Positions 4,553 through 18,087 of a stretch of 32,000 nucleotides of DNA are shown here, in pieces. A model generated the notes under the pieces. It saw nothing but the letters and a program-made list of their open reading frames with translations. It was not told the DNA's origin and did not search any database. Positions within the stretch are counted from its first letter, which is position 1; every line of letters begins with the position of its first letter. Source of the DNA: Candidatus Izimoplasma sp. HR2 (lineage in GTDB: Bacteria; Bacillota_I; Bacilli_A; Izemoplasmatales; Izemoplasmataceae); assembly GCA_000753575.1 (NCBI GenBank), contig JRFF01000053.1, positions 89,641 to 121,640 on the forward strand. The letters run 5' to 3'. A program made the translations under genes and the position numbers.

Positions 4553-5065
4553 TTATTGCTCTTTTCTGCGAACAAGGGTTAAAAAAGATAAGCTGAAATC
4601 ATCTTTTCTTTCCTGGACATACTGGTTTTGCAGTATGAAATCATTATTATCAATTATTGGAAAAAAAATATCTGCTTTTTCAAAAGTTGTATTAAAGATA
4701 GTTAATTCAATTACATCCGCATATTGATAAAATTGTTTATATACACTTGCTCCACCAATAATGTAAACATCTTCAAATTTACTCATTGTTAATACAAAAT
4801 TTATATCATCTGTTATTGTATCAAAATCTGTAAGTCCTTCAACTTCTTTTCTATTGCTTCTAGTTAATATTACATTATGTCTACCACTTAATCTATGAGA
4901 ACCATTTTTCATTGGTAAACTATACCAAGTTGTATCTCCCATAACTATTGAATGATCCATTGTTAATTTTTTAAAGTGCTTCATATCTTCTGGTATATTA
5001 GCTAAAAGTTCTCCTTGATATCCGAGTCCATTATTTAAATCAACGGCTGCTATTAAAATAATCAT
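4553..5065 (-). CDS. folA: dihydrofolate reductase
   Basis: [35 protein letters not shown].. is a typical DHFR N-terminus. Its ATG overlaps the thyA TAA stop. Confidence 0.85.
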   Translation of the reverse strand: MIILIAAVDLNNGLGYQGELLANIPEDMKHFKKLTMDHSIVMGDTTWYSLPMKNGSHRLSGRHNVILTRSNRKEVEGLTDFDTITDDINFVLTMSKFEDVYIIGGASVYKQFYQYADVIELTIFNTTFEKADIFFPIIDNNDFILQNQYVQERKDDFSLSFLTLVRRKEQ

Positions 5066-5928
5066 TATATAGCCACCTCAAATTTAGGCAATCTGCACAT
5101 TGGGTCATAGTCTATCATTTCAAAATCATCAATAGTAAAATCATAAAAATTATCTGATTTAGGGTTAAATACTAACCTAGCAGTAAGATCTTTTATTGTC
5201 CCATCTGCAATTTCTTTCTCTAAAGATAGGAATCTCATCAATATTGTTTTTGCCGCATCAACATGCCTATCATAGATATGTAAATTATCTACGACATGCA
5301 CAAATTTTCCTGGTTGTAGCCCAACAGCTTTAGCTATCATCATCATGAGTGCAACATACTGGACCTTGTTGATATGTCCGGCTACCATATAGTCGTTAGA
5401 ACGTTGTGTTAATTTCATATCTAGGTATCCATCATCTCGCACCATTCAAGTTGTAGAATAAGCGCAAGGAAAAAGTCCTTTTGTTTCTTCTAAATCAGCA
5501 TATTGATACATGTTCATTATATGTCTACGTCCCATTGGTGATTCTTTTAAATTTTTTATTAATTTATCAATTAATCCATATTTTTTAATTGTTGCTCCAT
5601 ATCGTTGCCCTATTGTACCATTTCCTATATCTCAATCATCCCACCAACGAATCCCATATTTATTTCTCAATAATGCTAAATCATTTGATTGATCTTGATA
5701 TATCCATAAAATTTCTTTTATACCATTCTTCCAAGGAATCGGTCTTAATCTAGTTATTGGGAATTCATTTTTAGAAATATCATATTCTTCAACAATAAAA
5801 GTTGTATAAATAGTATGAGCAGGACTACCATCATGTCAAACAGGTCTAACTTCAAATTTTTCAGTTGTATAACCTTTATTCAACAAAATCATAATGTTAT
5901 GAGCAAATATTCTTTCTTGCATTAACAT
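5065..5928 (-). CDS. thyA: thymidylate synthase ThyA (287 aa with TGA=Trp)
   Basis: C-terminal track ORF 5065..5445 continues upstream through TGA at 5446-5448, 5632-5634 and 5836-5838. Motifs include [22 protein letters not shown] and [12 protein letters not shown] at 5928 with AAGGAG upstream. Confidence 0.9.
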
Positions 5929-5950
5929 AAAATTTTACTCCTTTACATAT

Positions 5951-7385: not shown

Positions 7386-8531
7386 CTAATTATCAAAAAT
7401 TTTTGAAAGCAAACAATCTTTAGAATCTATATCTTGGCTATCTAATCGAAATCCATAACAACATCCAGCTTTACTATTTATATAAGGATGCCTTAAAGAA
7501 TATTTACCTTCTTTTACTCCTGTTTCCATTGCACCAATTACAAGCGGTTTTCCTATAAATTTATTAGAATCTTCCTTAATTTCTTTCAAAAGTGCTTCAG
7601 TCAATCCTGAAGATACTGTTCCAATAGATATTAATTCACCATTTTCGTTGTAAGCGCCAATCTCGATGCTGCCTATCCAATCCATATGTGCTGCTTTTGT
7701 AATTGCATCCCCATTATCATCAAAGTAATTTCAAGCTTCTAGCTCTTTGCCTTCATAATAATAAGTTGGCTTACAAAATCTTAAACAAATTACATCCATA
7801 TCAGCAAGTTCTTTCTTAAATTTAATCGTGTTTCAAGCGGGTCTCTTATTTGGAACTATAAACCCAAGTTTACTTTTTAATACAATTCCTTCTTCTTCCG
7901 CAGCAAACGTATCTGAAAGTAATTGTCCTAAGTCTTTTGTATAAGTTTCTGCAAATTCAACAAACATTTTTTCTTCGTTTGTAGCTTGTTTTTCAAAATT
8001 TTCTTTTATTCCATTTAATAGAACTATTCTTTCTTCAGTTTTTATATTTAATTGCATTTCTTGCGCATAGATTGCGATGTCATGCACATAAAAATATAAT
8101 TTAGAATTAGAATCATTCTCTTGCCGAGCAACTGCTTTTAATGGCAAACAACCCATAATTTTAGTAACTTCATTAGAACCGCCTTTTCTTGAACATATTT
8201 CTCCTATCAAAACAGTTTCAACTGGTAAATACTTATTTAATATTTTTTTTATATGAGGAACATTCCCTAATTTTTCCGATAATAATCCAGTTTTTTTTGA
8301 TACACTCTTACTAAAAAGATAAGAATTGTTCTCATGTTTTTCATAGGAGTAATAATAACCATCCTTTTTAATCTGTGCAACGTATTTTTCATTTAAAAGT
8401 ATCTCATTTTTTGTATGTTTCTTATTCTTTAAGCTTCAAATTTTCATTGGCATAATCATGCATGCTTCTGGATACAATTTGTCTATTTGTTCTCTTGTAA
8501 AATCATTTATTTTAACTCCTTGTAACTCCAT
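7386..8531 (-). CDS. lig: ATP-dependent DNA ligase (381 aa with TGA=Trp)
   Basis: Joins track ORFs 7386..7685 and 7833..8210 plus the N-terminus through TGA at 7731-7733, 7833-7835 and 8436-8438. Motif I is AQIKKDGYY (KxDG), motif III is LIGEI, then EGIVLK and SLRHPY. ATG at 8531 after AGGAGG. Confidence 0.85.
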
Positions 8532-8550
8532 AATGCCTCCTAATTATTTT

Positions 8551-12084: not shown

Positions 12085-12471
12085 TTATTTATATAATTTT
12101 AAATGTCCTGTTATTTCATCAATATCACAGTTAAAATCTGGACCTATACCCAGGCAAGTTGCAGTACCTGGTTCAACTTCTGTTCTGCCATCATCCACGA
12201 TCAAAGCGCATGACATCCCTTTGCTCTTGGCTATTTTATATAAAGCTAACAATTCTTCTTCACTATTTACTTGTAAAACTATTTTAGTAAAATCTTCTGC
12301 TAGCCATTTATATGCTGCTGATTTTTCTTTTAATTTAAAAATTGTATCTGTCCTTGATTCTCTTATTTCGTCCAAGAGTGCACCTAATGATGCATGTGAA
12401 ACTTGTGCGGCTAACTTTCCTGGAGACATATTCAAATCTTTTCTAGCAACAATTACTTGTTTCACTTTCAT
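12085..12471 (-). CDS. peptidyl-tRNA hydrolase, Pth2 (archaeal/eukaryotic) type
   Basis: VIVARKDLNMSPGKLAAQVSHASLGAL resembles the PTH2 N-terminal signature. 128 aa. Confidence 0.7.
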   Translation of the reverse strand: MKVKQVIVARKDLNMSPGKLAAQVSHASLGALLDEIRESRTDTIFKLKEKSAAYKWLAEDFTKIVLQVNSEEELLALYKIAKSKGMSCALIVDDGRTEVEPGTATCLGIGPDFNCDIDEITGHLKLYK

Positions 12472-15627: not shown

Positions 15628-16359
15628 TTAATTTTTAACTATAAATAATTTTTCAACACTTTTTTTATGAGTGCCTTTGTTGTCTAATCCTACTTTATGT
15701 TCTTTACTCCAAATGCATTCAAAATTGTTTTCTGGCATTTGATATTCACTAATAATAATTATATTATTCTTACTCATTTCTTTTGCTCATGCATAAAATT
15801 CTTCATAATTAAATTTTGGTTGTTCTGGATAACGCTTTGTGCTTCTATACGGAATATCACAATATATAACATAATTATTAATTTCTTCATTTGTGTATTC
15901 ATTAAAATTTTTACAATAAAATTTTACATCTGTTAAATTTTTTCTTTGTTTTTCTATGTTCCTTATACCTTCATTTGGTATATCTCTAGGAGTTATTTTG
16001 TCTGCTTTAAATCCTCTTGCGAATCCTTGAAAATAACGAGAACCATAGGTAGCGCAGAATCCAACTAATCCAATATACCAATTAGGGTAATTATTTTTAT
16101 TATTTTTTACTTGTTTATATTCTTCTTCTGTTATTGTTGTCGGTAATGGATTATTTAATATTTTAATATAATTTAATAAAGCAATTAATTCTTTATGTAT
16201 GTCTGAACCAATTTTATTATTATGATTTATTTTATCTATTACATTCGCTCCACCTACGCATACTTCTAAATATCCATCACAATTACTATCATCTATAATT
16301 TCTTGAATTATTGGAATAATATATTTACAAAGTCTATTTTTACTGCCTACAAATTTCAT
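15628..16359 (-). CDS. dam: Dam-type N6-adenine DNA methyltransferase
   Basis: N-terminal FVGSKNRL and catalytic DIPY motif. The track ORF ends at TGA 15787-15789 and TAA is at 15628-15630. Confidence 0.75.
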
Positions 16360-16369
16360 AATTCCCTCC

Positions 16370-16576
16370 TTAAAACACTGTTACTTCTTCTATTCCTTCT
16401 CCATTAATGATTGTATCAGATTTTGCTATAAATGTTGTAGTTCCTGATTTAGTTTTAACAGGTTCTCCATCAGGTTCGAATAATCTGAACATATCTAATT
16501 CTTTAATATCTATTGGAAGACATTCTTCTCAAGTAGAATTTATCCAATTAAATTTTTCAACTTTTCTCATTCTCAT
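16370..16576 (-). CDS. hypothetical protein (68 aa), visible only with TGA=Trp
   Basis: ATG 16576 after AAGGAG, TGA 16529-16531, TAA 16370-16372. Confidence 0.5.
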
Positions 16577-17776: not shown

Positions 17777-17853
17777 TGGTATGTAGGGAGAGGCTCGAAC
17801 TCTCAAAACTTTGGGTCTAAGCCAAAGATCTCCTCCATTTGGATTACCTACAC
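17777..17853 (-). tRNA. class-I-sized tRNA with anticodon UAG (Leu-type anticodon, no long variable arm)
   Basis: Acceptor gtgtagg/cctacat. Anticodon arm ctttgg-ctTAGac-ccaaag. 4-nt variable loop. T arm gagag-ttcgagc-ctctc. CCA encoded. Irregular D arm. Confidence 0.65.
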
Positions 17854-17881: not shown

Positions 17882-17910
17882 ATTATAACATATCTTTATT
17901 GAGATGTCAA
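17882..17910 (-). promoter_or_regulatory. sigma70-type promoter inside the tRNA island
   Basis: Minus strand TTGACA-17 nt-TATAAT, exact consensus. Confidence 0.7.
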
Positions 17911-18013: not shown

Positions 18014-18087
18014 TGGCAAGGGCACAAGGAATTTAACCTCAATCTTGTGGTTTGGAATCACGTATGTTAACATTACACCATGCCCCT
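18014..18087 (-). tRNA. tRNA-Trp(CCA), atypical
   Basis: Acceptor aggggca/tgccctt, A1-U72, discriminator G73, CCA. Anticodon loop ttCCAaa on a 3-bp stem flanked by mismatches. T loop ttaaatt. D loop lacks GG. Confidence 0.6.

Follow-up and report, generated by a model that had tools for sequence, protein, structure and literature searches.

A tRNA gene that carries a leucine anticodon on a body of class I size raises the question of which amino acid it brings to the ribosome, and of whether it is a working gene at all. Such a gene, with the anticodon UAG, is found in the stretch of 32,000 nucleotides of phage DNA analysed here (the window). The first-pass annotation of this DNA took it as a rule that bacterial and phage tRNA-Leu are class II, with a long variable arm, and therefore proposed that either the leucyl-tRNA synthetase (LeuRS) acts here without need of the long arm, or another amino acid is attached to the tRNA, in the manner of CUN-Thr in yeast mitochondria; an anticodon-nuclease-resistant or decoy variant was named as a further possibility. 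The reading that we favour, with a probability of roughly 80%, is that the gene specifies a functional type I tRNA-Leu with its own promoter, which would be leucylated by the bacterial-type LeuRS of the host and would decode CUN as leucine.

The gene occupies positions 17777-17853 on the minus strand (no strand had been given before) and is 77 nt long, including an encoded CCA. ARAGORN calls it tRNA-Leu(tag), 77 nt, and a local scan with the Rfam model RF00005 gives 45.2 bits (E 7e-9), exceeding the gathering score of 29, and the two programs thus agree on a tRNA cloverleaf. Its acceptor stem is GUGUAGG/CCUACAU with a G1.U72 pair, followed by U8 and A9. The D arm (17828-17844, minus strand), as bracketed by ARAGORN, consists of a 3-bp stem, AUC/GAU, and an 11-nt loop, CAAAUGGAGGA, which contains A14, A15, G18 and G19. 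After C26 comes the anticodon stem UUUGG/CCAAA, whose loop CUUAGAC holds the anticodon at 17817-17819 (minus strand; cta on the plus strand, ARAGORN anticodon position 35). The variable loop GUUUU (17805-17809, minus strand) ends in U48, the partner of A15, and the T arm GAGAG-UUCGAGC-CUCUC is followed by A73 and the CCA. With 5 nt, the variable loop lies within the 4-7 nt that, together with a leucine anticodon such as UAG, characterize a type I tRNALeu, and falls short of the variable stem-loop of more than 10 nt typical of class II. There is no space for a long arm, and neither ARAGORN nor Rfam gave another anticodon frame. Hence the earlier description of a UAG tRNA of class I size with an encoded CCA is borne out, and two of its details depend on how one base is counted: the variable loop is 4 nt and the anticodon stem 6 bp if C26-G44 is counted as a pair, while in standard numbering they are 5 nt and 5 bp, respectively.

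The gene is part of a dense tRNA cluster. The window has a GC content of 28% and all of its genes are on the minus strand; ARAGORN predicts 24 tRNA genes at 12.5-25.5 kb, and Rfam adds one, a tRNA with the anticodon CCA (Trp) at 18017-18087 (minus strand; 46.3 bits, no ARAGORN call) that has two anticodon-stem mismatches, bringing the cluster to 25 genes. The cluster includes a second type I tRNA-Leu, with the anticodon UAA, at 20241-20316 (minus strand; 76 nt by ARAGORN, 48 bits by Rfam), which has G1.U72, A73, a 3-bp D stem and the variable loop AUAGU. The Ser tRNAs (85 and 88 nt) and the Tyr tRNA (86 nt) of the same cluster have retained their long arms. The window sequence recurs on contigs of up to 128 kb in several assemblies, and the replication genes of the phage include Pfam families named after SPbeta proteins. 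A megablast search with 10 kb from the tRNA cluster gave no match in cultured phages, among which no close relative of the window phage was found, and scans of IMG/VR with a strict anticodon-arm plus T-arm DNA pattern and with peptide patterns of a neighbouring 505-aa protein were likewise negative. A related phage contig (L001), whose GyrA is 75% identical and whose genes follow the same order, served for comparison.

The supposed rule that bacterial and phage tRNA-Leu are class II does not hold, as short tRNA-Leu genes are frequent both in phages and in the chromosomes of Actinomycetota. A sensitive blastn search against cultured phages returned matches annotated as tRNA-Leu; the six loci examined gave genes of 74-78 nt in five unrelated phages, namely Erwinia phage phiEa21-4 (Ounavirinae; two genes, one labelled 'tRNA-OTHER', an example of how annotation pipelines sometimes mislabel short tRNA-Leu), Vibrio phage V05 (Schizotequatrovirus), Cronobacter phage LPCS28, Cellulophaga phage phi19:1 and Enterobacter phage vB_ExiM_F1M1E (Certrevirus). 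These genes, known from annotation only, share the architecture of the window tRNA, with a 3-bp D stem, a D loop of 10-12 nt that follows the pattern xAAUUGGCAGA, a variable loop of 5 nt with U as its last base, A73 and, in many cases, G1.U72; they are not close to it in sequence, the best blastn matches covering less than 60% of the UAG tRNA. Short arms are not universal in phages, since tRNA-Leu(UAG) of T5 is 85 nt long and has a long arm, as does tRNA-Leu of Bacillus phage PBC2. When IMG/VR was scanned with a D-loop plus T-arm motif at class I spacing, the matches listed included 116 non-redundant Leu tRNAs with a variable loop of 4-7 nt and 43 with a long arm, and the Ser and Tyr tRNAs at the listed loci remained long. 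In a less biased subset, comprising those listed loci that had been matched via a non-Leu tRNA, 15 of 35 tRNA-Leu genes (~40%) were short, and 22 of the phage loci listed carried both short and long types. We found no description of short-arm tRNA-Leu in phages in the searchable literature.

A scan of bacterial genomes for the UAG version yielded at least 117 short tRNA-Leu(UAG) genes of 73-79 nt (loci L134-L253), in as many species; most of those listed are present as a single gene on the chromosome of a member of the Actinomycetota (such as Amycolatopsis, Nocardioides, Nocardia and Streptomyces; for instance L134 in Amycolatopsis roodepoortensis and L149 in Streptomyces sp. YU58). In their D loop, CAAUUGGCAGA, and T arm, GAGAG-UUCGAGU-CUCUC, they are very similar to the phage family, with which they also have A73 and U48 in common, while the window tRNA differs from these and from the Streptomyces type I tRNA described below in being phage-encoded and AT-rich, and in having G1.U72 and a variant D loop with GGAGGA. 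Given this wide occurrence, and since CUN still stands for leucine (see below), the UAG tRNA is an ordinary one. The window itself is of little consequence in this respect, as a normal leucine adaptor requires no recoding of CUN; the wider pattern of short tRNA-Leu in phages and Actinomycetota is perhaps worth a specialist's note.

That a tRNA-Leu can do without its long arm is consistent with what is known of leucine identity. In E. coli, the identity elements are A73, A15:U48, G18G19, A20a and elbow contacts, and both the anticodon and the long arm are dispensable to LeuRS, which still charges a minimal tRNALeu lacking both arms (PMC9976931). We scored a set of seven features derived from this knowledge, namely A73, A14, A15, U48, positions 13 and 22 unpaired, A22, and 3-4 nt from G19 to position 22. 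All seven are present in both Leu tRNAs of the window, UAG and UAA. The UAG tRNA has U8, A14, A15 and U48, and thereby the potential U8:A14 and A15:U48 (Levitt) pairs, an unpaired C13.A22, and a D loop with 4 nt before and 3 nt after G18G19. Among the phage matches listed, the full set occurs in 90 of 116 short Leu tRNAs (78%) and 30 of 43 long ones (70%), versus 7 of ~960 other tRNAs (0.7%). As to single positions in the same listed matches, A73 is found in 97% of the short and 98% of the long Leu tRNAs versus 58% of the others, U48 in 111 of 116 short and 42 of 43 long Leu tRNAs, and G1.U72 and C2-G71 are enriched in both types. The 3-bp D stem with a loop of 10-12 nt is likewise common to the 116 short and 43 long tRNA-Leu listed. 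Since the identity set is frequent in Leu tRNAs and found in less than 1% of others, the 3-bp stem and 11-nt loop of the window tRNA are a tRNA-Leu signature, and not the irregular D arm for which they had been taken.

Some positions of the UAG tRNA depart from the usual pattern. Pair 2-71 is U-A instead of the usual C-G, and two bases downstream of G19 stands a G (GGAGGA), in place of the A of most Leu tRNAs (GGCAGA) and of the L001 ortholog. If this base corresponds to A20a, as in our provisional numbering, a determinant found to be important in E. coli selection experiments (PMC9976931) is missing from the window tRNA. Position 37 is A, where G is typical of CUN-reading bacterial tRNA-Leu; we dropped this as a peculiarity of the gene, since half of the phage CUN Leu tRNAs, short and long alike, have A37. 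In the UAA tRNA of the window (20241-20316, minus strand), position 37 is U, which was seen in 1 of 55 short UUR Leu tRNAs.

Two statistical comparisons were less informative than the literature-defined identity set, on which we have relied for the isotype. A naive-Bayes isotype classifier was built from phage tRNAs, with long-arm genes only as the Leu class and with the anticodon and variable loop omitted; at a leave-one-out accuracy of only 77%, it gave His as the top call for the UAG tRNA, and placed 42 of the 116 short Leu tRNAs as Leu, the largest class though no majority. In a nearest-neighbour comparison, 13 of the 15 neighbours of the UAG tRNA were short Leu tRNAs, which lends weak support, given the excess of short Leu tRNAs in the sample; short Leu neighbours were also found for the Tyr and Arg-UCU tRNAs of the window.

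Taken together with the promoter and codon evidence given below, these elements suggest the following course of events. The gene would be transcribed from its own consensus promoter within the 25-gene cluster, and the product would be charged with leucine by the bacterial-type LeuRS of the host via its acceptor end and elbow. The enzyme would read A73, U8:A14, A15:U48, G18G19 with U55/C56, and the enlarged D loop on its 3-bp stem; as it would read neither the anticodon nor the long arm, the arm could be lost without loss of leucine identity. The tRNA would then supply CUN decoding to an AT-rich phage that carries a near-complete tRNA set, and, having U34, this tRNA could plausibly read the entire CUN box alone. 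Of the options raised by the first-pass annotation, a LeuRS without need of the long arm is thus favoured by the identity set, by the leucine meaning of CUN in GyrA and by the E. coli work (PMC9976931); leucylation itself we infer. Short-arm tRNA-Leu with the LeuRS identity core may serve as a natural experiment for arm-independent bacterial LeuRS. Bacterial TyrRS also uses the long arm, and the Ser and Tyr tRNAs in the same genomes would stay long because they need it. For Ser, the size of the extra arm is a major identity element (PMC9976931).

The closest experimental parallel is the type I tRNALeu(CAA) of S. coelicolor, which has been shown to be leucylated by its own LeuRS (Fan et al., Nucleic Acids Res 2019, PMC6614811). 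[quoted passage not shown] It differs in having C48 instead of U48, and the Streptomyces LeuRS makes no use of A73. E. coli LeuRS did not charge the Streptomyces tRNALeu(CAA) (PMC6614811), so that arm-independence is not universal among bacterial LeuRS. The class II tRNA-Leu of E. coli and T5 agree with the window tRNA in A73, A15:U48, the 3-bp D stem, the length of the D loop and the placement of GG, and G1.U72 is found in 30% of the long-arm phage Leu tRNAs among the matches listed; what the window tRNA lacks in comparison is the variable stem-loop of 11-18 nt. Mitochondrial tRNA-Leu is similarly devoid of a long arm, with its identity resting on A73 and A14 (PMC9976931), but the elbows of mitochondrial tRNAs are degenerate and their LeuRS is a dedicated mitochondrial one, whereas the elbow of the phage tRNA is canonical (G18G19, T-loop UUCGA).

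The loss of the arm might also have been adaptive, an explanation that we consider unlikely, though it fares better than the other two discussed below. It states that a short tRNA-Leu, still leucylated, evades toxins or nucleases that recognise the long arm of class II tRNAs; as Leu is the sole class II identity with an arm-free synthetase, phages could disguise it as class I, and phages, and perhaps Actinomycetota, would repeatedly keep short tRNA-Leu against nucleotidyltransferase toxins of the AbiEii/MenT type. In its favour are the frequency of short Leu tRNAs in phages of many hosts (the 15 of 35 in the less biased IMG/VR subset listed), the long arms kept by Ser and Tyr tRNAs, and the presence of tRNA-care genes nearby (PTH2, and an Rnl2-type RNA ligase with a phosphoesterase). 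According to a preprint, class II tRNAs seem to be the preferred targets of the abortive-infection toxin AbiEii, which makes escape from class-II-directed effectors a testable, if speculative, benefit; this literature hint is also the sole support for a nuclease- or toxin-resistant variant. On the other hand, no tRNA-targeting effector is known for the host of the phage, no toxin is known to pick tRNA-Leu by its arm, and AbiEii left the tested M. tuberculosis tRNA-Leu unmodified (preprint). Moreover, many Actinomycetota carry short tRNA-Leu as a normal, single gene of the chromosome, which favours simple tolerance of arm loss, and such neutral tolerance fits the data equally well; the 22 listed phage loci with both short and long types also speak against evasion.

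It is still less probable that the gene is a decaying one, i.e. a pseudogene that remained when the arm was deleted. Phage tRNA clusters do hold degenerate members, such as the tRNA-like gene at 20401-20472, which lacks U33, and the Rfam score of 45 bits is mid-range. However, comparison with the related phage points to a maintained gene. The ortholog, at L001:20273-20349, differs by eight double compensatory changes (pairs 2-71, 5-68, 6-67, 10-25, 27-43, 28-42, 29-41 and 50-64), with no broken pair, and two further single changes keep wobble pairs. Within the phage itself the sequence is identical in three other assemblies, four independent assemblies in total. These compensatory changes, the intact pairing and the identity across assemblies indicate a selected, functional fold rather than decay; the tertiary and identity positions scored here, too, are all intact, and the CCA is encoded. 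When 35 short Leu tRNAs were placed on one cloverleaf, 98.9% of the cells were paired and double changes were seen in 19 of 20 pairs, a degree of covariation matched by 0 of 500 shuffles. The ortholog of the UAA tRNA lies at L001:17486-17563, both short Leu tRNAs being syntenic in that contig. A promoter scan, by consensus match alone, further predicts a sigma-70-type promoter, TTGACA-17 nt-TATAAT with TG upstream, at 17882-17910 on the minus strand (12/12 consensus positions), which ends 28 nt before the 5' end of the tRNA and would drive its transcription. By this comparative evidence, tRNA-Leu(UAG) is a genuine gene with its fold under selection.

The meaning of the CUN codons, which account for 28% of the Leu codons in the window, was examined by aligning the phage GyrA with 117 homologs and comparing its 20 CUN codons column by column, a check on a conserved protein that had been proposed before and that came out as Leu. 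Ten of the 20 codons are in columns with at least 97% Leu (for instance codons 164 and 421, both CUA, and codon 312, CUG), the remaining ones being mostly in columns of Leu/Ile/Val/Met, and the mean column composition is 66% Leu. None of the 20 codons falls in a column of conserved Thr, Ser or other residue among the 117 homologs, and the one Thr-rich column (62%) is at a variable position. On this alignment CUN is leucine in the window phage, and a reassignment is rejected. The second option of the first-pass annotation, that the tRNA is charged with another amino acid and CUN reassigned or ambiguous after the model of the yeast mitochondrial tRNA-Thr(UAG), which also has a UAG anticodon on a class I body, is therefore scarcely credible in spite of the class I size and of a departure from the standard code elsewhere in this phage (UGA as Trp), for the CUN codons of GyrA sit on conserved Leu columns, the Leu identity set of seven features is complete, the Ala determinant G3.U70 is absent, synthetases that read the anticodon would reject UAG, and the anticodon loop has the normal 7 nt as opposed to 8 nt in the yeast mitochondrial tRNA.

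The more unusual feature of the window is this other departure from the code. UGA is, as judged from reading frames and alignments, a sense codon read as Trp in the window phage. Read-through of in-frame TGA joins fragments of ThyA, DNA ligase, DnaB, Dam methylase and a GIY-YIG endonuclease (5065-5934, 7386-8543, 113-1699, 15628-16380 and 29244-30116, all on the minus strand). Of the three in-frame TGAs of ThyA, two coincide in the alignment with Trp residues of B. subtilis ThyA (PDB 1b02), and the third is one residue away from a Trp. The host may be a code-4 organism, or one with the standard code whose phage is recoded. TGA makes up about one third of the Trp codons (20 TGA versus 41 TGG), and a Trp-like tRNA with the anticodon UCA and G73, labelled 'SeC' by ARAGORN, is encoded at 25462-25535 (minus strand).

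Several other genes of the cluster and its surroundings deserve mention. The tRNA-like gene without U33 noted above (20401-20472, minus strand; Rfam ~40 bits) has the anticodon loop CGUGGAG, and the gene at the same position of the related phage (L001:17176-17247), with the loop CGGGAAG, is also without U33; ARAGORN names the former Pro(UGG) and the latter a 72-nt Ser(GGA). A tRNA-Ile at 20627-20701 (minus strand) has the anticodon UAU, and is not of the lysidine-type with CAU. The tRNA-Arg(UCU) at 21427-21502 (minus strand) has a 3-bp D stem and the D loop UAAUUGGAUA, and 9 of its 15 nearest neighbours are short Leu tRNAs; it may have arisen by duplication and a change of anticodon. Amid the tRNA genes, at 22580-24097 (minus strand), is encoded the 505-aa protein mentioned above, with DUF2828 and DUF7788 and a weak von Willebrand A match, whose counterpart in L001 has 501 aa and which may have an RNA-binding or tRNA-related function. 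A gene for a PTH2-type peptidyl-tRNA hydrolase (12085-12471, minus strand) adjoins the tRNA cluster, and an Rnl2-type RNA ligase and a metallophosphoesterase are encoded just outside the window (L002:49-984 and 1671-2354); the three form a predicted toolkit for tRNA care and repair. Finally, GyrB appears to be encoded in two genes, one for a 451-aa N-terminal part (30137-31492, minus strand) and one for a 161-aa Toprim/C-terminal part (28555-29040, minus strand), between which sits the GIY-YIG endonuclease gene (29244-30116, minus strand), while the GyrB of L001 is intact, with 643 aa.
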